From positions 8,127 to 72,126 of the forward strand of contig JAEKLF010000037.1 of NCBI GenBank assembly GCA_019509985.1: a stretch of 64,000 nt of DNA, in the 5' to 3' direction. Position 1 is the first letter of the stretch, and the number at the start of each line of letters is the position of its first letter. The notes under the pieces are model-generated. The model was not told the origin of the DNA. It saw only the letters and a program-made list of their open reading frames with translations, and searched no databases. Positions 2,250-63,531 of the stretch are shown here, in pieces. The DNA is from Burkholderiales bacterium. GTDB lineage: Bacteria > Pseudomonadota > Gammaproteobacteria > Burkholderiales > Burkholderiaceae_C. The translations under genes and the position numbers were made by a program.

Positions 2250-5075
2250 TCAGGGCTTGGGCTGGCCGTCGGGGTCGCGCACCTCCACCTTGCGGCCAAT
2301 GGCTTCCAGCTGCGGCTGCACCTTGGCCTTGTCGCCCACAGCCACGACGATCAACTGCGCCGGGTCCAGGTGCTGCTGCGCCGCCTTCAGCGCGGTGGCC
2401 GACGTGACGGCGCCGTACTTCTTCGGCAGGTCGGTGATGGCCGACAGCGGCTGGCCCGAGGCCCAGTTGCCCGCGTAGCCGGCGACGACCGCGAGGTTGG
2501 TGTCGAACAGGCCCGGCAGTGACAGCAGCTGCGCATTGCGCACGCGGCCGAGTTCCGCAGCGCCCATGGGCTTGGCGCGCATGCCTTCGATCTCCTTCCA
2601 CATGTCGACGAGGGCTGCGCCGGTCACGTCCGTGCGCACGCTGCCGCGGATGCCGAACTGGCCGCGCTCGCGGCCCATCGTGTAGCCGGAGTAGATGCCG
2701 TAGGTGTAGCCCTTGACCTCGCGCAGCTGGGTGTTGATGCGCGACGTGAACAGGCCGCCCAGGGCCGCGTTCATGACCTTGATCGAGGCTGCATCCGGCG
2801 TGGACGCGAACGGGCCGGGCGCGACGACCGCCAGGGCCGTCTGCGGCGCGCCGGGCTTGTCGACCAGCACGGTGCGCGCGGCAATCGGCTTGGCCGCCGA
2901 CAGCGGCGCGGCGGGCGCGGCATCGCCGGCGGGCTTCCAGCTGCCGAACAGCGGTTCGACCAATGCCCGCAGCTCGGCTTCGCTGAGGTCACCCGCCACG
3001 ACCAGAGCCGCGCGCTCGGGGCGGTAGTGGCCCTGCCAGAAGGCACGCAGCGCGCTCGCGTCGACGGCCTTGATGCTGGCCTCGGTGCCTAGCGCGTTCT
3101 CGGCCAGCGGATGGCCCTCGCCGTAGGTCACGCGGTTGCCGACGGCATTGGCCAGCAGCGGCGCCTGCTCGCGCGCCTGCGCCAGGGCCGCGAGGCGCTG
3201 GGACTTCTGGCGCTCGATCTCGGGCGTGGCGAAGGCGGGGTTCAGCACCAGGTCGGCCAGCAGCGCGAAGCCGTCCTTGGCGCTGCGCTTGAGGCCGGAG
3301 AAATCGATGCGTGCTTCTTCGCTGCCGGCCTGAGCCGTCAGCGTCGCGCCCAGGGCCGACGTGGCCTCGGCGATCTGCTGCGCGCTGCGCGTCGTCGTGC
3401 CCTCGGGCAGCATGGCGGCAGTGAAGCCGGCGAGGCCCGGCTTGTCCGCCGGGTTGGCGCCCTGGCCGGCGCGCAGCACGAGGCTGGCGCTGACCAGCGG
3501 CAGGCCGGGCTTGGGCGAGTGGATGACGGTCAGCCCGTTGGCCAGCGTGAAGCTCTGCGCGGCCGGCAGCACCAGCGGCTTGGCCTTGGCAGCACCCGGC
3601 GCCTTGTTGCGCCAGGCTTCGGTCGCGTTCAGCGATTCACGCTCACCCTTGGCCGCCTTGGTGGGCGCCGGTGGCGTGGCCACCTCGGGCGCCAGCACCT
3701 GCTCGCCGGGCTTGGCCTGCACGACGACGCGACTGTCCTTCTTCAGCCATTGCGCCACGGTGGCGCTGACGGCGGCCGGCGTCGTTTGCCGATAGCGCGC
3801 CAGGTCCTTGCCGACGAAGCCCGGGTCGCCCGCCATCTGGTTGTAGTGGTTGATGAGGTCGGCCAGCGACGTGACCTTCTCCATGCGCTGCAGCACCTGG
3901 GTCTCGATGGTGGCGCGCGCCTGGGCCAGCTCGGCCTCAGTTGGCGGCTCGGCGGCGAGCCGGGCGACCTCGGCGTCGACCAGCTTCTCGATCTCGTCCA
4001 GCGAGGCGCCCGGGCGGGCGACGACCTCGATGTCGAACACCGAGCTCAGCGACTGCGAGTCCTGCCCCACCTGCACGCTCTGCGCGAGCTGCTTGTCGCG
4101 CACCAGCAGGCCGTAAAGCCGGCTGGCCTTGCCGCCGCCCAGCACGTGGGCAGCCACGTCCAGCTCGGCGTCGCCGGCCGCGAACATCGGCGGCGTGTGC
4201 CAGGCGATGTTGAGGCGGCTCAGCTCGATGCGGTCGGTCACGACGAGGCGGCGCTCCTTCGTGATCTCGGGCATGGCCACCTTCACCTCCGGCACCTTGG
4301 GGCCGGCCTTCAGCGAGCCGAAGTACTTCTGCACCAGCGCCTTGGCCTGCTTGGGATCGAAGTCGCCGGCCAGCACCAGCGTCGCGTTGTTGGGCCGGTA
4401 GTAGGTGCGGGCGAAGTCCTTCACGTCCGCGAGCTTGATGCTCTGGATGTCGGCATGCGAGCCGATGACCGCCGCGCGATAGGGGTGGCCTTCGGGGTAG
4501 AGGGCCTGGTACATCGCTTCCTCGACGATGCCGTAGGGTCGGTTCTCGAAGCTCTGGCGGCGCTCGTTGCGCACGACGTCCTGCTGGTTGGCCAGCGACA
4601 CCGAATCGACCTCGTCGATCATGTAGCCCAGCATGTCGGACTTCAGCCACAGGCCGAGTTCGAGCTGGTTGGACGGCAGCGTGAAGAAGTAGTTGGTGCG
4701 GTCGAAGTTGGTCGAGCCGTTGCTGTCGGTGCCGCCCGCGGCGTCGACGTACTGGTCGAACTTGCCACGCGGCACATGGCGGCTGCCGGCGAACATCAGG
4801 TGCTCGAACAAGTGAGCGAAACCCGTCTGGCCCTTGGCCTCGTTGCGCGGGCCGGCATGCACCCACAGGTTGAAGGCGACGAGCGGCAGGCGGTGATCCT
4901 CGACGAGGATGACCTCGAAGCCATTGGCCAGCGTGACCTTCTCCTGGCGGATGGCGATCTGGCCGGCCTCGGTGCTGACGGCGCCTTGCGGTGCCGCGGC
5001 GACGGGGAAGGTGGCCGAGAGCGCGCCGGCCAGGGCCAGCAGCGCGACGAGACGGCGGGGGGCGGGAGCTTTCAT
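2250..5075 (-). CDS. M16 family zinc peptidase (two fused halves), exported
   Basis: Inverted zinc motif HLFEH, NGSTNFDRTNYF, VVRNERR; second half with LREVKGYTY; N-terminal signal peptide. Confidence 0.9.
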   Translation of the reverse strand: MKAPAPRRLVALLALAGALSATFPVAAAPQGAVSTEAGQIAIRQEKVTLANGFEVILVEDHRLPLVAFNLWVHAGPRNEAKGQTGFAHLFEHLMFAGSRHVPRGKFDQYVDAAGGTDSNGSTNFDRTNYFFTLPSNQLELGLWLKSDMLGYMIDEVDSVSLANQQDVVRNERRQSFENRPYGIVEEAMYQALYPEGHPYRAAVIGSHADIQSIKLADVKDFARTYYRPNNATLVLAGDFDPKQAKALVQKYFGSLKAGPKVPEVKVAMPEITKERRLVVTDRIELSRLNIAWHTPPMFAAGDAELDVAAHVLGGGKASRLYGLLVRDKQLAQSVQVGQDSQSLSSVFDIEVVARPGASLDEIEKLVDAEVARLAAEPPTEAELAQARATIETQVLQRMEKVTSLADLINHYNQMAGDPGFVGKDLARYRQTTPAAVSATVAQWLKKDSRVVVQAKPGEQVLAPEVATPPAPTKAAKGERESLNATEAWRNKAPGAAKAKPLVLPAAQSFTLANGLTVIHSPKPGLPLVSASLVLRAGQGANPADKPGLAGFTAAMLPEGTTTRSAQQIAEATSALGATLTAQAGSEEARIDFSGLKRSAKDGFALLADLVLNPAFATPEIERQKSQRLAALAQAREQAPLLANAVGNRVTYGEGHPLAENALGTEASIKAVDASALRAFWQGHYRPERAALVVAGDLSEAELRALVEPLFGSWKPAGDAAPAAPLSAAKPIAARTVLVDKPGAPQTALAVVAPGPFASTPDAASIKVMNAALGGLFTSRINTQLREVKGYTYGIYSGYTMGRERGQFGIRGSVRTDVTGAALVDMWKEIEGMRAKPMGAAELGRVRNAQLLSLPGLFDTNLAVVAGYAGNWASGQPLSAITDLPKKYGAVTSATALKAAQQHLDPAQLIVVAVGDKAKVQPQLEAIGRKVEVRDPDGQPKP

Positions 5076-5145
5076 TCGGATTGGTCCTTCAAGGGCAATG
5101 CAGGGATTGGGCGACGCCGGCAGCGTCGCATAGAAGTGCCGGGAG

Positions 5146-6138
5146 TCAGGGCGCTGACCACGGAGAAACCCAGGCCAGCAGTGCCAGCCACAGTGGCGCG
5201 GTGGCGACGTAGAGCACCGTGGACAGCACGGTGGCGGCCGTGACCTCCGGTTCCATGGTGCGGTAGCGCTGCGCGAAGATCAGCGCATTGGAGCCGGTGG
5301 GCAGCGCGGCCAGCATGACGATGACGGCCAGCGGCAGGCCCTTGAGGCCCAGGCCCCAGTGCGCGATGCCGAAGACGACGGCCGGGATCAGCACCAGCTT
5401 GGCCGACACCAGCCCGGACAGGCCGCGCCAGGACTTGGGCCAGCCGTAATAGGCCAGCGACATGCCGATCAACGTCAAGCACAGCGGCACGACGGCCGTG
5501 CCGAGGTTCTGCAGCACCTCGTCGAACACGGCCGGCAGGACCCAGCCGGTGGCGTTCCAGCCCAGGCCGGCCAGCACCGGCAGCACGACCGGGTGGATGA
5601 CCGTGTTGCGCACCGTCTGCGCCAGCGTCGCGGCCAGGCTGGTGCCGGGGCGCTCGCGGGCGACGTCCAGCTCCACGAGGCTGGTCAGCAGGGTCAGGAT
5701 GGTCAGCGAATGCAGGCTGACGACGGCGATGTGGATGGCCAGGCCCTGCTCGCCGAACACGCCCGCCGCCACCGGCACGCCCACCTGCAGCGTGTTGCCG
5801 AAGCCGGCGGTGATGGCTTTGACGCTGGGCGCCGTCACCGGCTCGTCCGGCTTGCGCCGCCAGCGCTCGAACCCGTAGATCAGCGTGACGACGGCCAGCA
5901 CCGGCACGAAGAAGGCGCCGAGGAAGGCCCAGGGCAGCGTCGCCGTATCCAGCCGCGCCGTGGTGCGGAACAGCAGGGCCGGCACGAAGATGTAGAAGGC
6001 CGCATTGGCCAGCACGCGGGCGGGGTCACTGTCGCTGCCGGCCTCGCCGCCGCCCAGCCAGCGCATGCGGCCGACGGCCCAGCCGATCGCGACGGCCACC
6101 AGGATCGCCAGCAGCTTGGCGGCAATGCCCCAGGTCAT
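5146..6138 (-). CDS. AEC (auxin efflux carrier)-family transporter
   Basis: About 10 hydrophobic segments; FGNTLQVGVP, HPVVLP and AALPTGSNALIFA motifs. Confidence 0.85.
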   Translation of the reverse strand: MTWGIAAKLLAILVAVAIGWAVGRMRWLGGGEAGSDSDPARVLANAAFYIFVPALLFRTTARLDTATLPWAFLGAFFVPVLAVVTLIYGFERWRRKPDEPVTAPSVKAITAGFGNTLQVGVPVAAGVFGEQGLAIHIAVVSLHSLTILTLLTSLVELDVARERPGTSLAATLAQTVRNTVIHPVVLPVLAGLGWNATGWVLPAVFDEVLQNLGTAVVPLCLTLIGMSLAYYGWPKSWRGLSGLVSAKLVLIPAVVFGIAHWGLGLKGLPLAVIVMLAALPTGSNALIFAQRYRTMEPEVTAATVLSTVLYVATAPLWLALLAWVSPWSAP

Positions 6139-54750: not shown

Positions 54751-55014
54751 ATGGAACCCCAACACATCCACGAAGACGTCCCCGGCGGCGTGCCACTGAA
54801 GATGTGGACGCAAGGCGTGCCAGTCGAAGACTCGGCCAAGCGCCAGCTGCAGAACGCGGCCCGCCTGCCCATCGTCTTCAAGCACATCGCCGCGATGCCC
54901 GACGTGCACTTCGGCATCGGCGCCACCGTCGGCTCGGTCATCCCCACCGTCAAGGCCATCATCCCGGCTGCGGTCGGTGTGGACATCGGCTGTTCTTCCG
55001 ACATCCACTTGTAA
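54751..55014 (+). pseudogene. rtcB: RtcB RNA ligase, 5' fragment interrupted at the DIGC motif
   Basis: LPIVFKHIAAMPDVHFGIGATVGSVIP...IIPAAVGVDIGC, then unrelated SSDIHL*; no rtcB remainder found in the window. Confidence 0.9.
54979..55008. other. Candidate recombinase core/attachment site (left junction)
   Basis: GTGGACATCGG-CTGTTCTT-CCGACATCCAC: 11-bp imperfect inverted arms (9/11) around an 8-bp spacer, exactly at the rtcB breakpoint. Confidence 0.6.
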
Positions 55015-55118: not shown

Positions 55119-55430
55119 GTGGCCATTCAGCGCAGATCGTTCGGAGTTGCCGTATTGGAGCGGCTGCGGGCCACCGCATGCACCACGGCCTTCGGGCGGT
55201 TGGATGGCCACTTCAAGCGCGATTCAACGTTCATCCCAACAAAGGACCCCAACACTGAGCGGTGGCACTGTTCCACCTCAAAGGGTGAGTGCGAGCTGCT
55301 GGTCAATGGCCCAAAGTGGTACGACACCAGAACCCGGGAGGGTGGAGGTGGCTCGATTGATCTAGCGATGCAGTTGTACCGACTCGACTTCGTCGATGCG
55401 GTGAACCTCTTGGTGGGCAGGGGCCTATGA
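55119..55430 (+). CDS. Small conserved-looking protein, first gene of the recombinase module
   Basis: AGGAGG RBS before GTG; KWYDTR..GGGGSIDLAMQL...DFVDAVNLL recalls the primase zinc-binding-domain tail; ATGA overlap with the next gene. Confidence 0.6.
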   Translation: MAIQRRSFGVAVLERLRATACTTAFGRLDGHFKRDSTFIPTKDPNTERWHCSTSKGECELLVNGPKWYDTRTREGGGGSIDLAMQLYRLDFVDAVNLLVGRGL

Positions 55431-56611
55431 ACCTCTACTTCAGCACCAAGGACTTTGCAGTCGACGGTCAGCACTACGAAGGCTTCCCGATTCTCGTGGA
55501 CGCCTCGGGTGCAGTTGTTGAGGTCGCCCTGCTCTTCTTCGTGGACGACCTCCTCAACCGCGGTGGCGCGCGAGACCTGAAAACGTGGGCTGCCTATGGC
55601 CGGCACATGTACGACTACTTCGGCTACCTGGAGCAGCGTCTGGCCTGGGATCACATCCCAGCTGAGGGTAGTGGACAGCTCTCACCACTAGCTGCCTACG
55701 TGCGATGGTGCGACACCGACGTCCGCAATGCTCCTGGCTACGTCAACGACAAGCGCGCGACCATCGAGCGCTTCTACGAATGGGCAAAGCGGGTCGGGCG
55801 CATTGATGAGCTGCCCTTCACCCGAAGTGAAGTCATTTCATCTAGCGCTGATGGGGTGCTTGCGCACGCCTCGGCAACTCGAGGCCGACGGTCGGCGTCC
55901 AACCTGCATCTGCCTGAGAACGACGACGACGTGCCAGACATGGTGCTGTCGCGTGGCCAGATCGACGCAGCGTTTGAACACGCGACGAATCCAACGCACC
56001 GTGCCGTCCTGCACCTGAGCCTGAATGCCGGGCTGAGAGCGGAGGAGCTCGCGACGTTCCCGATGAAGTACGTCGTCGACACCAGCAGGCTATCGCCCAA
56101 GGTGAAGACGGTGCCCGTGACCCTTGATCCGAAGGACATGCACACCAAGAACGACAAGAAGCGAACAGTGCGACTGTCGGTGCGGTGCATGAACCTGCTC
56201 TGGCAGTATCGAGAGGCCGTTAGGCCACGACTGAGGGCTCGGGCGAAGGGAGGCCCCGCCGACAGCGGAGTGCTGCTCCTGACCCGGTTTGGCGTGCCAT
56301 TCGTCGCCGACGGCTTCGTGTCACCCATGGCGCGCCTAGGGAAGCGTGCTGGATTCCACATCCACCCGCACATGCTCAGGCATACGTTTGCCACCCATAC
56401 GCTAGCCTCCCTCGAGGACTTGAAGCGTGCCGGCAGGCTCAGGAGCTCGCCGCTCGTGGTTCTCAAGCGTCTTCTGGGCCATTCGAAGACAACCAACACA
56501 GAACGCTACCTGCATCTGCTGGATTCAATCGAGGACGTCTACGGCACCCGCTACCAAGCGGAGATTGACGAGTTGGCGCTGGGGTATCTGAACGAGGCAG
56601 AGAAGAAGTAG
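55427..56611 (+). CDS. Tyrosine recombinase 1
   Basis: NAGLRAEEL (R), HPHMLRHTFA (HxxR), LLGHSK (H), TERYLH (Y). Confidence 0.92.
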   Translation: MNLYFSTKDFAVDGQHYEGFPILVDASGAVVEVALLFFVDDLLNRGGARDLKTWAAYGRHMYDYFGYLEQRLAWDHIPAEGSGQLSPLAAYVRWCDTDVRNAPGYVNDKRATIERFYEWAKRVGRIDELPFTRSEVISSSADGVLAHASATRGRRSASNLHLPENDDDVPDMVLSRGQIDAAFEHATNPTHRAVLHLSLNAGLRAEELATFPMKYVVDTSRLSPKVKTVPVTLDPKDMHTKNDKKRTVRLSVRCMNLLWQYREAVRPRLRARAKGGPADSGVLLLTRFGVPFVADGFVSPMARLGKRAGFHIHPHMLRHTFATHTLASLEDLKRAGRLRSSPLVVLKRLLGHSKTTNTERYLHLLDSIEDVYGTRYQAEIDELALGYLNEAEKK

Positions 56612-58219
56612 ATGGCGAAGAAGAAGGACTTCGGGGTCGGAGGGCCGCCACCGAAGCCGGTGATCCCCATTTTCCCGACGAGTAGGACGCTCGAACGTGC
56701 GGCCGTGAGCGCTCTCGTGATCCCGCTACCTCATGGCGTCGACGCGGAGTTCGATTGGTGGGAGTACCTCGGGCATGGGTTCGATGACACGGTGTCGGCT
56801 ATCACGTTGGAGATGCGCGCCATGGTTGCGCGCGGCAGACCGAAGCCCTTGGCCTTGAAAACCATCGCCAACGGCGGCGTGATTCACTGGTTCAGGTTCT
56901 GCGTTGAGCGCGCCTCTGCGGGCACACCACCGACGTTGGACAGCATCAACGCCGAGACGATTGAGGTCTTTGCCGGTTGGCTCGCGACCCGTTTGAAGCC
57001 CGACGGCGAGCTGTGGTCGTTGAACACTGCGCGGACGGTCTACCAGAAGGTCAAGACCGTGCTGGAGGCACTTGCAGATCGCAAACTGCTGCCAAGGGAT
57101 GGGCTGTTTCCTAAGAACCCTTTCCCGGGGGCCACTGACATCAACCGGCGCCGCAACCACATACTGCCTCTGTCTGATGGCGAACGAGAGCGCATCCTCC
57201 GCCCGCTGGCGATGCAGGTTGCCCAGGTGTACGACGGCACCCACCCCGGCACACCGTCGACGCAATTGGGGCTGTGCGTCTTTGCCATCTTCTTGAAGAC
57301 CGGCGTCAACCCCACCCCGTTCCTCGAAATCCCTCGGGACCTGCAGAAGTGCTTCATGAGTCATCCGCGCGTGAACACGAGGATTCTGGTGACCTTCAAG
57401 CGCCGGGCGAACAAGCGCACCAAGACGCCGCTGGAGCCTGAGTCTCGGGTGGTGTCGCTGGACGTCTATAAGCTCTGTGAGCGCGTTCTGGGCCTCACCG
57501 AGGGTGCGGCCAAGCTGGCGGTTGGCACGAAGCTGGAGGGCTTGCTGTGGGTCTACGAGCTCGATGGTGCACCCCGTGGCATGACGACCGAGACGCTGAG
57601 CGCCGTCGCCAACGCATTCACGTCGCGTCACGCCCTTGTGCGCGACGACGGCACCCGCCTGAAGATGAGCAGCCAGCTCTTCCGCAACACCAAGCTCAAT
57701 CGCGTCTGGCGAGCGTCCAAGGGCGACCTGCTCGCAACGGCGCGAAGCGGATCGAACACGCCGACTGCCGCTCAGCGATACCTCGCAGTCACTCCCGACA
57801 TGCTCGACGAACATCGCATGGCAGGCGAGGTGCTGGTGGACACCCTGTCGGCTGCCGGCCCGAGGGACAACACGCCGCACAGCGGCTGCAAGGATGCCTT
57901 CAACGGCGAGTTCGCGCCGAAGGACGGCTCGCCTTGTGTCGACTTCCTCTCGTGCTTCCGATGCAAGTCTCAGGTCATCATCCAGGACGACCTCTACAAG
58001 CTGTTCTCGTTCTATTGGGCGCTGTTTTCGCAGCGGAGCCACATTGGCCAAGACAACTGGCGCAAGCTCTTCGGCTGGGTCACGAGGGTGATTGACCGCG
58101 ACATCGCGCCGAAGTTCGATGCGACGGTCGTGGAACGAGAGAGGGCTCGCGCCCGCTCCGAACCACACCCGATGTGGCGGTCTCCGTCGGTCTTAGCTGC
58201 ACTGAGGTCCATCCAATGA
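56612..58219 (+). CDS. Tyrosine-recombinase-fold protein 2 with degenerate catalytic residues
   Basis: KTGVNPT (N at the usual R), QLFRNT, GSNTPTAAQRYL; C-terminal Cys cluster CKD..C..FLSCFRC; starts directly after the upstream stop. Confidence 0.7.
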   Translation: MAKKKDFGVGGPPPKPVIPIFPTSRTLERAAVSALVIPLPHGVDAEFDWWEYLGHGFDDTVSAITLEMRAMVARGRPKPLALKTIANGGVIHWFRFCVERASAGTPPTLDSINAETIEVFAGWLATRLKPDGELWSLNTARTVYQKVKTVLEALADRKLLPRDGLFPKNPFPGATDINRRRNHILPLSDGERERILRPLAMQVAQVYDGTHPGTPSTQLGLCVFAIFLKTGVNPTPFLEIPRDLQKCFMSHPRVNTRILVTFKRRANKRTKTPLEPESRVVSLDVYKLCERVLGLTEGAAKLAVGTKLEGLLWVYELDGAPRGMTTETLSAVANAFTSRHALVRDDGTRLKMSSQLFRNTKLNRVWRASKGDLLATARSGSNTPTAAQRYLAVTPDMLDEHRMAGEVLVDTLSAAGPRDNTPHSGCKDAFNGEFAPKDGSPCVDFLSCFRCKSQVIIQDDLYKLFSFYWALFSQRSHIGQDNWRKLFGWVTRVIDRDIAPKFDATVVERERARARSEPHPMWRSPSVLAALRSIQ

Positions 58220-60099
58220 GCGCTGCCCTGGCCTATGAGCTACATGCGGCTGCGTTGGAGCTGTCGCCGGCGGAGCGAGACGACCTCGTCATCTCGTACG
58301 TTCAGCTGGCGGGCGGCGAGCGCATTCCGCTCTCTCGCTACGGTGACCCCGTCTGGAACTACACGCCATTCTTCCCCGGCGCAGCCCGCGGCAAGCAGGA
58401 CAAGGAGATTGTCTGGGCCAAGACTCCTGACGAGTGGGTTCCGTCGATGCGAAGCGCAGCCGCTGCGCTCACATACCGCAAAGCTCCTGGCGGTGTCCGA
58501 CTGGACCCGTCGACGATCCCCAAACGGCACGTCATCCTGAATGCCTTCGCGAAGTGGGCCAGCTCAGAAGGCATCAGGCGCTTCGGCGACGTCCGCGCTG
58601 CCGACTTGACCAGGTACATCCAGAAGCTTCGCGACGACGGTCTCTACGACCGTAGCCTGGCCAGCCACATTGCCATCCTGCGCAAGGTACACGAGCTTCG
58701 GGGAGCAATGCTCGACAGCTTGACCGACGAAGCTGCGACCGCGCTGCGGTTTGACCAGCTCGGCGCGCTCTGGGAGCCTGACGCGGTCAACGACCGCCGT
58801 ACTGAGCTCATCCCGCTCGCTGAGGCGTCAGCATTGTTCGTGGCCGCCAGAGAGCACCTGACCAGGGCACCAACCCTACTGCGTCTGCGTGACGACCTGG
58901 CTGAACAGTGGGAGGCCGCAAAGGTCACCTGGGACCGGAGGGTATGGGGTGACGACGTCAAGAAGCCGGCGGTGCGAGCTGCTGGCTTCCGAGACGCCCT
59001 TGAGTTCGAGTCCGCCGTCAGTGACATCCGGACTGCGGCCTACATCGTCCTCGGCATCACCACGGGTTGCCGCGTCCATGAGCTTGGCGAGGCGGAGGTG
59101 GGCTGCGTCTATCCGGACACGGTCGACGGTGAGACGTATTGGTGGCTGAAGGCCGCGACGCGCAAGATCGGCGACGGACCGATGCGTTGGCTGGCACCTG
59201 AAGTGGCCAAAGAGGCCTCCGACGCCCTCGAATGGCACTCTGCCCCCTTGCGAGCCCGCATCGCCGCTGAGCTGCCTGTCATGCGAGAGCAGTTCACAAC
59301 CGCAACCACAGAAGCGGAAAGAGCCAGGCTGGCGGCGCATATTCTTGAGCTTGAGCGCAATGCCGACCGCTTGTTCCTGAGCGAGTCGACGCGGGGCGTT
59401 GTCTCAACCGACACCAAGTCGCACAACAAGCAACTAAAGGCCTTCGCTGCACGCAAGGGCATCAAGCTCGGCGTGCCGCTTGCCACCCACCGGTTCCGCC
59501 GCACCTACGCCGTTATCGTCGTGCATCTGAACAAGGGGCCGCGCATCGACATGGTGACGCTGCAGCGCCACTTCAAGCACGCGAGCGTGCTCATGACGGA
59601 GTGGTACGCCGAGCTGTCCGAGACCGACAGGGAGCTCTACGAGCTCATCGAGACGGAGACAGGCTTCTTCGACATGGCGCTGGTCGACCACTGGCTGGAT
59701 GGATCGACGCCGCTGGCCGGCGGCCTGGGTGCCCGAATCAAGGCGTACGCAGGCAAGCATCACCAGCCCATCTTCTTCAAGACCCGGCGCGAGTTCGTTG
59801 ACAGCATCCGGGAGGGCATCAACATCCGGAGCACAGGGCACAGCTGGTGCCTGGCAGAGGCGAAGGACTGTGGCGGGCAAGGGCTTTTCGATGCTCCCCA
59901 GTGCGGCAGTTGCGGCAACGGCGTCATCGACGACAACTTCCGAGAGGTGTGGCAGAACCTTCGTCAGGACCACGAGGACTTGTCCAAGCTCGACGACATT
60001 GGGCCTGGCGGCAGGGCAAAGGCGGCGAAGGGCCTCGCAGCGGCCGAAGCCGTCCTCGCACAGCTTGAACAACCTGACGACGAGACCGCCGATGTCTGA
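58216..60099 (+). CDS. Tyrosine recombinase 3
   Basis: TTGCRVHEL, THRFRRTYA, HFKHASVLMTEWYA; C-terminal Cys cluster; ATGA overlap with the previous gene. Confidence 0.88.
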   Translation: MSAALAYELHAAALELSPAERDDLVISYVQLAGGERIPLSRYGDPVWNYTPFFPGAARGKQDKEIVWAKTPDEWVPSMRSAAAALTYRKAPGGVRLDPSTIPKRHVILNAFAKWASSEGIRRFGDVRAADLTRYIQKLRDDGLYDRSLASHIAILRKVHELRGAMLDSLTDEAATALRFDQLGALWEPDAVNDRRTELIPLAEASALFVAAREHLTRAPTLLRLRDDLAEQWEAAKVTWDRRVWGDDVKKPAVRAAGFRDALEFESAVSDIRTAAYIVLGITTGCRVHELGEAEVGCVYPDTVDGETYWWLKAATRKIGDGPMRWLAPEVAKEASDALEWHSAPLRARIAAELPVMREQFTTATTEAERARLAAHILELERNADRLFLSESTRGVVSTDTKSHNKQLKAFAARKGIKLGVPLATHRFRRTYAVIVVHLNKGPRIDMVTLQRHFKHASVLMTEWYAELSETDRELYELIETETGFFDMALVDHWLDGSTPLAGGLGARIKAYAGKHHQPIFFKTRREFVDSIREGINIRSTGHSWCLAEAKDCGGQGLFDAPQCGSCGNGVIDDNFREVWQNLRQDHEDLSKLDDIGPGGRAKAAKGLAAAEAVLAQLEQPDDETADV

Positions 60100-60505
60100 A
60101 GAGCTCACCACCCGGAAGAAGCTGACCCTGGCGTTCGCCAGGCTAAAGCGAGATGCCGCCAAGGCCGGGAAGCCTGGCCCGTCTATCAGCGCCGTTGCTC
60201 GCGAAGCCGGCGTCAGTCACACCCTCGTTCACACCAAGTACCCGGACATCGCTGACCAAATTCGCGAGGTGAGCGGCCGTGGGCCCAAACAACAGCTAGA
60301 AAAGCAGCGCACCGCGGCGAAGCGGTCCGAGGACCGAGCTGCGGAACTGCGCGCGGAGCTTGCGGACCTGAAGGTCCAAAACCGAGGACTCGCAAGTGAG
60401 AACGCGCGCCTCCTTCTGCTCGTACAAAGCCTAGAACAAAAAGTCACTGCCCTTCAGTCTGGCTCCAAGGTTGTGCAGTTGAAGCCGATGCGCCGTCCAA
60501 ATTAG
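60092..60505 (+). CDS. HTH + coiled-coil accessory protein (TnpC/DUF6262-like)
   Basis: SISAVAREAGVSHTLVHTKYP HTH followed by a heptad coiled coil; 8-nt overlap with recombinase 3. Confidence 0.7.
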   Translation: MSEELTTRKKLTLAFARLKRDAAKAGKPGPSISAVAREAGVSHTLVHTKYPDIADQIREVSGRGPKQQLEKQRTAAKRSEDRAAELRAELADLKVQNRGLASENARLLLLVQSLEQKVTALQSGSKVVQLKPMRRPN

Positions 60506-60553
60506 GTGCAGATGTCGCGCCAATGACCAAGCCGTTCCAAGCAATGATCGACC

Positions 60554-62313
60554 GTGGTTTTGAGGTCCTATGCGTATCCCATGCCGCGCCCGACTAGCTC
60601 GCTCGGCTCAAGGCGAGCCGATTACCGGCTCAGCGCCTGCGACGGTGCTGGTCCTGCGATGGAAACCGGAGTGGGTGGCGCCGCAATCGCGATGTGGCTG
60701 GTGCTCGGCAACTTGACAGCAGTCTCCGGCTCAACTTCTTCGAAGCCGAACAGGCCCTGCGGGATGCTGCGTTTGCTGAGTGGGTTGATAACCGCATCGG
60801 GGAACGCCATCGGCGCCTGCAGGAAGTGCTGATCGACCACCTTCCGCAATGAAGGGTCCTTGACCAAGCCGACCAGGTGGTCGATGTCAGCGGCGTAAAG
60901 CACCTCGATGAAGTAGCCCTTCCCAGCCGCCCGCTCCTGGGCCACTGCAACCATGGCCCTGGCTTCCGTGCTCAACTCGCCGGTCACCCAGAGTTCGAAT
61001 CGAAGGTCGAGCTTGGACAGCTCGTTGTTCTTGCGTGTCTGTGAGAGGACGACCGGCAGGCGCTTGTTCAGCCATTTGTCGACCTCGTCGTCGCTGAGCA
61101 GGTTGCCAGGCACTAGGCCCTTGCACTCGATGAACCGGATGTAGCGGTTCTTGACGATGACCCGTACATCGACCTCCGCCACGTCCTTGCCGCCCTCACG
61201 ATAAATCTTATTGAGGGTGATGTCCGCCGGCGGCTCAAGTACGCGAACGACTTCCGCCACGACGAACTCGAAGAGGGCCCCTCGCAGGGTGCCCGCCGCA
61301 CCTTCCGCCTTGCCCAAGCGCTCGAACAGCTGGCTGAACAGGACCGGGTCGACAGCCTTTTCCGCCGCCTGACTCAGGGTCCTGAGCAACTCCAGCAGAG
61401 CCTTGGCCACGTCGGTCCCAAACAGAGATTCGGGCGTCGCTGGAACGATGCCCGCCCTACGGATGAGGTCCAGCGCACCTGGCGAATAGCGGTTGGCGAC
61501 GAAGAACTGCAAGCAACGGCCCATCCCACGGAACTGCCGCAGCGTGGCGCACTTGTAGAGAAACGGGCTGACGTCGTCGACACCCACCACCTCGGTCATG
61601 AGCACGTCGATGACAAGGAAGCCGGGCTTAGGCTTCGCCGAGCTTGACCAGTCAGCCAGCGGGCCGAGGAAGGATGGCGCGGACAAGTCCCAGCTGAACG
61701 CGCCGACCAACGGGGCCGTCCCCGTCCTGTCAGCCCTCAGCTTGAACGAGTTGAAGCTGCCGAGTCCGAGCTTGGCTGCCCACTCCTGGATCGACTGCAA
61801 GAGCACCCTCTCGGCGATGAGCCGAGCACGAACTGCGGGATAGCGGTCGTCAAGGTATGAATCGCCACGGGCGAATGCCACGCAGGGCCCGACGCCGGGC
61901 ATCTCAACCATTTGCAGCAACTCCGCATCCACGAGCCGCTTGACGACTTCATCGCTGGAAATCTGCCGCTGCCCATCTGATGTGCCTGCAGCCGCCGAGA
62001 AGTGCATGGCCGGAACGATCCCGCCCCGGGCAGTGAGCGCCTTGATGGCACGGGCATACGCACCGTTTCCATCCATCAGGGCCGCGGCCAGGCGATCCCA
62101 GAACTTCGGGCTGCCGTACTGGCTTTCGAGGTACAGGAACTGGGCGCCACGCGGAAGCACCAGATTCACTGCACGGACCGACAACGTGCGTCGCTCGATG
62201 CGCTTGCGAGCAGCCGCGGGCGTGATGTTCAGCTTGGCTGCCAACGCTGCGGCCAGAGAACCACTGGTCATCGGACCATTGGCGGCTAAGAGGGCTGCTA
62301 TCTCGACGCTCAC
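60554..62313 (-). CDS. Cargo protein: N-terminal HTH-like region plus PD-(D/E)xK nuclease-like domain
   Basis: NITPAAARKRIER; AEVDVRV...FIECKG near the C-terminus; GTG start. Confidence 0.6.
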
Positions 62314-62325
62314 ATGTCCACCTTG

Positions 62326-62519
62326 CCGGATGTCACACAGCGCTATTTATAACCGGTACTGATATATGCCTCGGCACGTTTTTTTCGCCAAGGCAGAGAA
62401 GCGCCTTAACAAAATCAACAACTTAGCAGATGGCAACGGACCTCGGATGACATGCCCGATGTCACACTCGTCGTCGGGAGACGTTCCGTATCGTACTGAT
62501 CTGTACTGAGCACGATACG
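62326..62519. promoter_or_regulatory. AT-richer control/recombination region with IHF site and repeats
   Basis: AATCAACAACTTA (62413-62425) matches the IHF consensus; CC(G/C)GATGTCACAC at 62326 and 62455; CGTATCGT-N17-ACGATACG at 62487-62519. Confidence 0.5.
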
Positions 62520-62799
62520 AATACAGTATCAAACGGGCTTGCTTGCGATGCCGGCCGGCCAGTCTGGACCGGCACCCTGTCGACGCTTTAGTTCAGGTTG
62601 AAAGCCGCATCATCAGTTGGCCCAGTCGGACCGCCGCCCTCAGGCTCACGGTCGATGCCGCACAGGAGAGCCGGACAAGCGTGTCGTCTCCGCACCGACC
62701 GAAGTCCTTCCCGGGCGTCAGCGCGACCCTGGCAGGGGCAGGCCGATGCGCTCAAGACCAGCGAGCACCAGCTCCCGGCGGGCCGCGAACTCCTCTCGT

Positions 62800-63531
62800 C
62801 TAACTGCCATTGCCCAATCGCAGCGGATGGTCGGCGGGTAGCGCTGCAACACACGTTGCGAGCTTGCCCTCTAGCTCGGCGACCAGCGGCTCCAGGTGCG
62901 CTACGACCAGTTGGGGAGAGTTCAGCACTTCTGGGAAGACCCACGATGACGCCGCCCGGGACATGTAGTCGGCTTCGAACGGGTAGACGCCCCTGAAAGC
63001 CTTCAGGATGGTGTTTTCCGCGAGCTTGATGACGGCATCGCCCGAGTATCCAAATTCCCCGACATCAGGCCGTAAGCCGTGCTCGATGCGGAGGGACTTC
63101 GGAAGCTCCCAGTAGGTGGCTCTGCATTTCTGCGCCCGGTCATTGAGCTCGGCGAGCCGCATGGCGATGACCTCGGCGCTCGCCGCGGCTTCAGACTCGG
63201 CCAGGGACTGCAGATGGACGTTGGTGAGCGCTGCGGCCTCCTTCGCACCGATCTGGAAGCCACTCTCGGACAGCAGCATGCCCCGGTCAGCGCCGGTGTC
63301 GGCGACTATCTCGCGCAGGGCGAGTACGTGTAGCTTGTTCACCGGGCTCTGCCAGCACTTGCACTCGACGATCCAGGTCACCTCGAAGCCCACATGGTGC
63401 GACTTCACGAGCACGTCGACGTCGTGCTTCGTTCTGGCGCCCTGCACCGTAACGTCAGTTTGTGCATCCATCCCCAGCGACCGAAAGAAGGCCGCAGCTT
63501 CCTCTTGATAGTCCTGCCACGCAGCAGCCAT
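62800..63531 (-). CDS. Mrr-like restriction endonuclease
   Basis: WQDYQEEAAAFFRSLG, HDVDVLV, WIVECKCW, GADRGMLLSESGFQIGA. Confidence 0.82.
   Translation of the reverse strand: MAAAWQDYQEEAAAFFRSLGMDAQTDVTVQGARTKHDVDVLVKSHHVGFEVTWIVECKCWQSPVNKLHVLALREIVADTGADRGMLLSESGFQIGAKEAAALTNVHLQSLAESEAAASAEVIAMRLAELNDRAQKCRATYWELPKSLRIEHGLRPDVGEFGYSGDAVIKLAENTILKAFRGVYPFEADYMSRAASSWVFPEVLNSPQLVVAHLEPLVAELEGKLATCVAALPADHPLRLGNGS

Follow-up and report, generated by a model that had tools for sequence, protein, structure and literature searches.

We describe here a gene for a 563-amino-acid (aa) protein, P0001, located on the minus strand of a 64,000-nucleotide (nt) stretch of contig JAEKLF010000037.1 from a Burkholderiales bacterium (assembly GCA_019509985.1), which in its entirety is referred to as the window. 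As the main new result, comparison of homologous loci indicates that this gene is preceded by a private leader, about 170 nt long, with deeply conserved boxes, and structural models predict for its product two winged-helix-like domains followed by two PD-(D/E)xK folds in tandem. The best reading of these data is a one-gene cassette that moves between replicons and takes along its own control region of about 170 nt, and we consider the chances about even that it encodes a self-repressed, solitary, restriction-type nuclease cutting foreign nucleic acid; the regulatory part of this proposal taken alone is likelier than the whole, and much less confidence attaches to the kind of target. A sequence-only reading that preceded this work had taken the gene for nuclease-like cargo of an integrative element, which is borne out by the nuclease folds and by the location of the gene in an island.

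The gene and its upstream control region

Based on the listing of open reading frames (ORFs), the gene is constituted by 563 codons and a stop codon; full-length homologues exist, the GTG start lines up with the ATG of close homologues (MSVEI...), and the host genome holds a single copy. The ORF proposed earlier for positions 60554-62313 is real, only its low coordinate having to be corrected: position 60554 lies 68 nt beyond the stop codon and is the start of a short plus-strand ORF unrelated to the 563-aa gene. The coding sequence and the elements preceding it are arranged as follows.

60622 to 62313, minus strand: coding sequence of P0001, GTG start, stop codon included
62330 to 62352, minus strand: proximal box TTATAAATAGCGCTGTGTGACAT, composed of TATAAAT (-10-like), then AGCGC, then GTGTGACA, and ending 17 nt before the start codon
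62379 to 62385: T7/A7 run between the boxes
62413 to 62425, plus strand: putative integration host factor (IHF) site, resembling the consensus, AATCAACAACTTA, between both boxes
62459 to 62469, minus strand: distal box GAGTGTGACAT, in the same orientation, 129 nt upstream of the proximal GTGACA

In 61 of 62 homologous loci the start codon is preceded, at a distance of 5-27 nt, by the end of a 22-nt box, TATAAATAGCGC(T/A)GTGTGACA, and in 59 of the 62 a second copy, (A)CTGTGACA, is found 108-147 nt further upstream (mode 120-122) in the same orientation. The boxes persist at 30-40% protein identity, including loci from other phyla and the plasmid copies of E. coli and Salmonella, and the TCAA block, the A-run, and an IHF-consensus-like site between them recur in many loci. 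Multiple alignment of the upstream DNA reveals conserved blocks extending to the distal box. Of the 8-mer GTGTGACA, the 250 nt preceding the gene contain 104 copies versus 0.47 expected, and elsewhere in 1.17 Mb of flanking sequence no enrichment is observed, so that the gene is not bracketed by such words. The assumption that the boxes are terminal repeats of a mobile element was rejected because no copy occurs downstream or elsewhere in the flanks.

The association of the box with this family of genes is specific. A degenerate 21-nt pattern, searched in 401 genomes of the same order, gave two matches, each directly before a family gene (one in the window itself, the other in a genome having a 39%-identical family gene 17 nt downstream), and its reversed control gave none. 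The full box occurs nowhere else in the host genome. Operator-like sites specific to the family gene are found at its own putative promoter in 59-61 of the 62 loci, and we regard the proximal box TTATAAATAGCGCTGTGTGACAT as a candidate promoter and operator. The idea that the box is the enzyme's restriction target and that the host avoids it finds no support, the core GTGTGACA being observed in the genome 19 times against 23.6 expected. No Rfam family was matched by positions 60400-62900 at E<=1, which means that the leader does not correspond to a known RNA, and a terminator scan gave one terminator-like match, which lies inside the gene and falls below chance.

The leader appears to travel together with the gene. 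When the window is compared with its closest relatives (75-79% identity), homologous DNA extends 39 to 117 nt beyond the start on the upstream side and stops inside the variable tail, short of the stop codon. Closer relatives whose flanks differ from each other share, pair by pair, a stretch beginning at -163 to -281 upstream and ending at +14 to +132 downstream.

Some loci show additional symmetry in this region. Subfamily-specific palindromes (ACATGTAnTCATGT, CACGTAnnTACGTG, and CCACGTAGTGG) stand about 15-30 nt before TATAAAT; their sequence changes and the palindromy stays, and they may serve as a second operator or as a hairpin. The leader of the window itself has no obvious palindrome ahead of TATAAAT. 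In the case of NC_021816.1, a 3.6-kb (3609 bp) Salmonella plasmid of Rop type, a perfect palindrome, TTACACGTAGTGTAA, stands in front of the proximal box, and the nearest distal TGTGACA-like word has the opposite orientation.

Two predicted nuclease folds behind two winged-helix-like domains

The full-length AlphaFold2 model was built with 35 relatives (predicted local distance difference test, pLDDT, 81; predicted template modelling score, pTM, 0.69), and the middle domain was modelled separately with 54 sequences (pLDDT 85, pTM 0.81). Conservation of residues was counted across 199 full-length members of the family. The domains delimited in this way are listed in the order of the protein.

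62128 to 62313, minus strand: first winged-helix-like domain, residues 1-62 (model topology H2-12, H17-28, H32-40, E46-48, E59-62, where H is helix and E strand)
61873 to 62109, minus strand: second winged-helix-like domain, residues 69-147 (model topology H85-95, E99-101, H102-109, H120-129, E133-138, E142-147; pLDDT 85-95)
61438 to 61863, minus strand: first restriction-endonuclease-fold domain, residues 151-292, predicted from the separate model, Foldseek, and conservation (E168, D209, D236, K254)
61306 to 61437, minus strand: helical linker between the nuclease folds, residues 293-336, according to the models
60820 to 61305, minus strand: second, canonical PD-(D/E)xK domain, residues 337-498 (RGxLFE349 ... 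E380-V-D382 ... E396-C-K398)
60625 to 60819, minus strand: disordered, non-conserved tail, residues 499-563 (pLDDT below 50, alignment)

All the motifs by which the gene had been singled out earlier are present (W208-D209-L210, F232-L-V-I-D236-V, E380-V-D382-V, and I395-E396-C-K398-G399), and they appear to be maintained by selection and not by chance, because D209, D236, K254, D382, E396, and K398 are kept in 189-199 of the 199 relatives.

The C-terminal motif EVDV...IECKG was assigned to the PD-(D/E)xK type from the letters, and both the fold and the catalytic E...D...(D/E)xK set agree with it. The model of this domain has an alpha-beta-beta-beta-alpha-beta core (H337-359, E364-373, E376-387, E391-398, H408-428, E436-443), which places E349 on helix 1, D382 on strand 2, and E396-C-K398 on strand 3; these residues are kept in 190 (E349), 199 (D382), 197 (E396), and 189 (K398, with arginine in 8 more) of the 199 members. 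Foldseek comparison with the PDB retrieved Cdn1, Card1, Can2, AF1548, and NucS, at probability 1.00 for Cdn1, Card1, AF1548, and NucS, and the family profile aligns RGxLFE...AEVD...IECKG with the nuclease motifs of Card1 at the marginal level of E=0.011. The member encoded by the 3.6-kb Salmonella plasmid (505 aa, 28-31% identical) scores above the threshold of the Pfam NERD model (PF08378) with 25.9 bits against a cut-off of 22.1 over residues 362-445; P0001 and five other relatives gave no NERD match.

What had been noted as a central WDL...FLVIDV segment is indeed there, and it turns out to be more than a segment: residues 151-292 are modelled with the same alpha-beta-beta-beta-alpha-beta core and form a second restriction-endonuclease fold, because the domain matches structurally the catalytic domains of MspJI, AspBHI, BbvCI, and NucS/EndoMS. 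AF1548 is among its Foldseek matches in the PDB too, and for MspJI, AspBHI, NucS, and EndoMS the probability is 1.00 with E-values from 1.8e-4 to 8e-3. The domain has its own acidic and lysine set, namely D209 in 194, D236 in 197, and K254 in 199 members, all four candidates including E168 being kept in 194-199. The canonical (D/E)xK triplet on strand 3 is absent, this strand reading D236-V-L, and the invariant K254 sits on the helix after strand 3, as in the variant sites of some restriction enzymes. A sequence search of the PDB with the profile of this domain found nothing. Origin of both nuclease domains by internal duplication was considered and found weak support (hhalign probability 31% over 46 columns).

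At the N-terminus, a helix-turn-helix (HTH)-like element had been proposed. The model provides the helix-helix-helix-strand-strand topology, and residues 7-41 recurrently give sub-threshold matches to AsnC, MarR, HTH_20, and HTH_24 models, no HTH family being significant; in place of one HTH, however, two winged-helix-like domains are predicted, each of this topology. No family matched residues 69-147, and the search of the PDB with the N-terminal profile yielded noise only. The likely recognition helix of the first domain is TPAAARKRIER, with A35, R36, and R41 kept in 191, 192, and 195 of the 199 relatives, respectively. Across the family this helix, with the pattern AAR(K/Q)R..R, is as invariant as the box. 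Covariation between helix and box cannot be used since neither varies, and we infer from their common conservation that the protein may bind its own boxes.

The absence of a named family, as supposed originally, was confirmed: searches of P0001 against Pfam, NCBIfam, PHROGs, and PADLOC gave no significant match and nothing below E=0.03. The best PADLOC-DB 2.0.0 matches (E=0.075 for P0001 and E=0.018 for a homologue from an E. coli plasmid) both correspond to the nuclease part of a CARF model, and a single-protein sequence search of the PDB with P0001 resulted in noise only.

Distribution of the family

The family is unnamed, sizeable, and patchily distributed across bacterial phyla. An exhaustive search gave 703 clusters (50% identity) at E<=1e-3 and 266 at E<=1e-30; most of the matches listed are about 500 aa long and span nearly the full query, the shorter entries resembling fragments. 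Among species-representative genomes 77 carry a family gene, mostly Pseudomonadota of all classes, and there are single records bearing the labels Luteolibacter, Lentisphaerae, Thermoguttaceae, Acidobacteriota, Bryobacterales, Binatia, and Thermodesulfobacteriota. In a plasmid collection 357 records possess a relative, with Klebsiella (187) and Escherichia (85) at the top and 193 of the plasmids being conjugative. A phage collection of 50,697 records contained no relative, and 2.9 million viral contigs contained one. This sole viral copy (IMGVR_UViG_3300018719_000023, positions 4362-6059) has an in-frame stop codon in the matched stretch and may be a pseudogene, or its frame may merely end earlier than that of the query.

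Genomic setting of the family gene

The flanks of homologous loci were compared using simple ORF calls. All-versus-all clustering of flanking ORFs showed that the best recurring neighbour families occur in 7-8 of the 77 loci and none in more than 8, and the proposal of a single-gene unit therefore stands: no conserved partner gene was found in these 77 loci. The 149 immediate neighbours include Gabija in four loci (GajA/GajB, E down to 1e-270), TIR in three, and SIR2 in two (in one of them with HerA), as well as integrases and type IV coupling proteins. On plasmids of IncF type the gene lies in a block with a HEPN nuclease and DUF4238, an annotated abortive-infection gene and an S-4TM effector being nearby. 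On the 3.6-kb Salmonella plasmid it is the only annotated gene not assigned to replication, and on plasmids of Klebsiella and Salmonella it is found near ccdAB and partition genes. This setting (plasmids, integrative elements, adjoining defence genes, and scarcity in phages) fits defence circumstantially, and by association the gene is a good candidate for a one-gene defence against foreign DNA.

The IncF-type block deserves separate description. It is a fixed set of five genes, i.e. a HEPN nuclease, a protein of about 255 aa, the family gene, DUF4238, and a 96-aa protein, found on plasmids of E. coli, Salmonella, and Klebsiella, with the following copies.

L084, 6515 to 11039, and L083, 1 to 4525: five-gene block, replicons IncFIA and IncFIB/FIC
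L089, 5502 to 10041: five-gene block

The block may be either one system or a small defence island, and it is not independent evidence of linkage because the plasmids bearing it are closely related to one another. Neither the E. coli plasmid homologue nor its four neighbours in the block has a significant PADLOC match.

Proposed mode of action and its alternatives

A coherent scheme would look as follows. TATAAAT, often preceded by TGn, would be the -10 element of the gene's promoter, and transcription would start inside GCGCTGTG, bringing the proximal TGTGACA to the start site. The first winged helix would bind both TGTGACA sites and repress its own gene, possibly via a loop assisted by IHF or the A-tract, thereby keeping the level of a dangerous nuclease low. 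Incoming DNA would be recognised by the second winged helix or by the nuclease domains, perhaps through base modification as in Mrr, DpnI, and MspJI-type enzymes, and would be cut by the two active sites, each acting on one strand or within a dimer as in the structural relatives. In this way the host or plasmid would be shielded against phages or competing mobile DNA, with no methyltransferase partner involved. As neither a methyltransferase nor an immunity gene is present, self-protection would be achieved via the choice of target (e.g., modified DNA) or via activation upon infection only.

A further-reaching version supposes a bifunctional repressor-nuclease forming an autonomous mobile immune cassette of undescribed kind, in which the first winged helix keeps the protein on two private TGTGACA operators (their conservation ranges from Pseudomonadota to Verrucomicrobiota and Acidobacteriota), the tandem sites perform double-strand cutting as a pseudo-dimer, and self-repression is coupled to activation within one polypeptide; we hold this to be possible and rather doubtful.

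Several observations weigh against a self-repressed defence nuclease. Defence neighbours are met in a minority of loci, so the association is no more than suggestive; nor does any named defence family fit P0001, whose best match in PADLOC is the one at E=0.075. The middle domain has no ExK triplet and may therefore play a regulatory role instead of a catalytic one. The HTH assignment is founded on model topology and sub-threshold matches, no promoter possessing a -35 element was detected by the consensus scan for sigma-70, and the supposed binding of the protein to its own boxes is deduced from co-conservation. Finally, a stand-alone NERD protein with a comparable active site is reported to act on RNA, as considered below.

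Among the alternatives, it is unlikely, given the evidence at hand, that the gene is a selfish module of maintenance or competition, the nuclease stabilising a plasmid or island by killing after its loss or by attacking rival plasmids. Such a role agrees with the bias towards plasmids (357 records, 193 of them conjugative), the solitary position on the 3.6-kb plasmid, the proximity to ccdAB and partition genes, and with tight self-regulation, which is typical of addiction modules. There is, however, neither a separate antitoxin or immunity gene nor a conserved small ORF alongside, many copies are chromosomal and adjoin phage-defence genes, and a single autoregulated protein offers no obvious mechanism based on differential decay.

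We find it quite improbable that the protein is a DNA-processing enzyme operating on its own boxes, which would nick or cut the TGTGACA sites in order to mobilise or copy the cassette in a homing-type manner or would resolve DNA intermediates of its carrier. The transfer of the gene with its 170-nt leader as a unit into unrelated contexts is compatible with it, as is the 5' limit of homology (-163) lying in one lineage just outside the distal box, and two direct sites flanking an IHF-like site do resemble the architecture of recombination sites. Yet both boxes are upstream and the 1.17 Mb of flanks hold no copy downstream or elsewhere, which leaves the cassette unbracketed; the limits of homology differ between pairs (from -163 to -281 and from +14 to +132); and the position of the proximal box, which overlaps a -10-like element immediately ahead of the start codon, is that of an operator.

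A comparably small chance is left for an RNA-cutting defence effector, whose PD-(D/E)xK or NERD-type domain would cleave phage or host RNA. Card1 and Can2, the closest structural matches of the C-terminal domain, cut single-stranded RNA as well as DNA. A distant family member exceeds the Pfam NERD threshold, and the stand-alone NERD protein ZwsA, with a similarly spaced E...D...ExK set, was reported to cut the genomes of RNA phages (bioRxiv 10.64898/2026.04.06.716636). The architecture of ZwsA is nevertheless different (82 kDa; VHS, DUF647, and S4 domains), and duplex DNA is the substrate suggested by the two winged helices of P0001 and by its structural similarity to MspJI, AspBHI, BbvCI, and NucS.

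That the protein is a transcription factor only, its nuclease folds being inactive scaffolds for dimerisation or ligand binding, is hardly tenable despite the conserved operator-like boxes and the missing ExK triplet of the middle domain, given that the C-terminal catalytic set is kept in 95-100% of the 199 members, that the E/D/D/K set of the middle domain is equally conserved, and that a box unique in the host genome leaves no regulon beyond the gene itself.

If the defence reading, that is, a self-repressed nuclease directed against foreign nucleic acid, is true, the gene would be a compact one-gene addition to the bacterial immune repertoire, and, hundreds of sequenced plasmids of Klebsiella, E. 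coli, and Salmonella carrying the system, consequences for phage therapy and for the spread of plasmids in those hosts would be conceivable. A chain harbouring two different restriction-type active sites could constitute a natural single-chain double-strand cutter. It is also unusual that a 22-nt promoter/operator box stays nearly letter-for-letter the same across phyla as the protein drifts to 30-40% identity; the leader may thus be a clean model for portable self-control of a dangerous gene in many hosts, and the box a simple DNA signature for finding the family.

The carrier island in the window

At position 55000 of the window the guanine-plus-cytosine content falls from about 70% to about 62%, and here a 19.3-kb island splits the RNA ligase gene rtcB. 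The first approximately 59 profile positions of rtcB end at about 55014, and the remainder is found 19.3 kb further along the contig. The 563-aa gene is the first cargo gene of this island and is convergent, as had been stated before, with the recombinase operon, the last gene of which (135 aa) occupies 60098-60505 on the plus strand. The features surrounding the gene are as follows.

54751 to 55014 and G000:C58:82495-83382 (L005 about 2493): the two pieces of rtcB
55119 to 60505, plus strand: recombination operon encoding a 103-aa ORF, a 394-aa tyrosine recombinase, a 535-aa protein, a 641-aa recombinase, and a 135-aa HTH/coiled-coil protein
62800 to 63531, minus strand: 243-aa protein with an Mrr_cat restriction-endonuclease domain (Pfam E=8e-14), upstream of the 563-aa gene and 486 nt apart from it

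The order of genes at the left end matches the order intA-tfp-intB-srap described for SE elements (PMC10214605); the 535-aa protein of the operon had no match in Pfam. The junctions with rtcB read ...GACATCGGCTG/TTCTTCC on the left and ...GAGCGGCTGCGGCATGATG on the right, with GGCTG at both ends. As read from the sequence, the right end also carries a small ORF with an Xre-type HTH (MKKQKPARAVLAANLQSLRGGLGVTQEKLAEMAGFHRTYISHVE...; L005 2143-2361), its distance to the rtcB junction being about 130 nt.

Further cargo comprises the Mrr_cat protein, DUF4031, thymidylate-synthase-like, and aGPT-Pplase3/ADDT proteins, an M78-peptidase protein, and DUF5677. The 243-aa Mrr_cat protein weakly matches the PADLOC model PDC-S02 (E=3.5e-6). 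In window coordinates 63560-66020 (L004 9187-11647) DUF4031 (E=4e-27), thymidylate-synthase-like (E=1e-23), and aGPT-Pplase3/ADDT (E=3e-93) genes follow; such a set is typical of DNA thymine hypermodification and is usually met in phages, here being part of an integrative element and adjoining the Mrr_cat nuclease. The hypermodification genes and the Mrr_cat gene may form a module of modification plus restriction. Next to them (L004 11650-13055, minus strand, equal to window 66023-67428) are a 358-aa protein with an M78 peptidase (ImmA/IrrE-like) domain and then a 110-aa ORF; in one other locus (L036) a homologue of the 358-aa protein (25% identity) is the immediate upstream neighbour of the family gene. 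None of the neighbours in the window, i.e. the recombinases, the Mrr_cat protein, and the hypermodification genes, recurs in the 77 homologous loci, and linkage of the 563-aa gene to any of them was rejected for that reason.

Comparison with known systems

P0001 would work most like the solitary type IV/IIM restriction enzymes and the stand-alone PD-(D/E)xK/NERD defence nucleases. It does not belong to Mrr_cat, Shedu (DUF4263), or CARF nucleases or to any PADLOC model, because their defining features were looked for and are not found in it. With Mrr, DpnI, and MspJI/AspBHI it shares the organisation in one polypeptide with no methyltransferase partner, in which winged-helix-type DNA-binding domain(s) are joined to a PD-(D/E)xK domain, as well as the location on mobile DNA and in defence islands, and its middle domain finds its best structural matches in the catalytic domains of MspJI and AspBHI. 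It differs from the Mrr-like enzymes in having no match to Mrr_cat, SRA, or another sensor family, the Mrr_cat protein of this locus being the neighbouring 243-aa product, and from the whole group in its two tandem nuclease folds and private conserved promoter box.

The nucleases Card1, Can2, and Cdn1 of type III CRISPR signalling (DUF1887 type) resemble the C-terminal domain in fold and in the arrangement GxxFE ... ExD ... ECK, and in both cases a sensor region stands ahead of the nuclease. In contrast to Card1 and Can2, P0001 has no CARF domain, the PADLOC CARF_PDDEXK match (E=0.075) covering residues 347-400, i.e. the nuclease part; its N-terminus is winged-helix-like, the similarity in sequence is marginal (E=0.011), and no Cas protein or cyclase was found among the top neighbour families in the 77 loci. 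Shedu (SduA, DUF4263) is likewise a single-protein PD-(D/E)xK nuclease with variable N-terminal sensor domains and a fold related to NucS, but P0001 matches neither DUF4263 in Pfam nor Shedu in PADLOC, and its tandem-nuclease architecture is different.

As regards expression control, the closest parallel is offered by controller (C) proteins of restriction-modification systems, the HTH of which binds operator boxes at the promoter of the nuclease gene and limits its expression. An HTH element holding down nuclease expression from operator boxes is what is supposed for P0001 too, with the differences that here it is fused to the nuclease, that no methyltransferase is present, and that the boxes are direct repeats about 121-130 nt apart and not adjacent palindromes.

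NERD defence nucleases exemplified by ZwsA are similar in being single-gene effectors with E...D...ExK residues found in defence islands, and some relatives of P0001 are annotated as NERD. ZwsA is, however, an 82-kDa protein with VHS, DUF647, and S4 domains (bioRxiv 10.64898/2026.04.06.716636), larger than P0001 and different from it in accessory domains, and it is reported to cut RNA, whereas P0001 has no NERD match; identity of the family with ZwsA was rejected for its size and domains, and identity with END nucleases (PMC12191111) for their architecture of PLD plus inactive EndoIII. Candidate nuclease defence genes as such are common, and the novelty lies in an unnamed family that combines tandem nucleases, a double winged helix, and a portable region for its own control.

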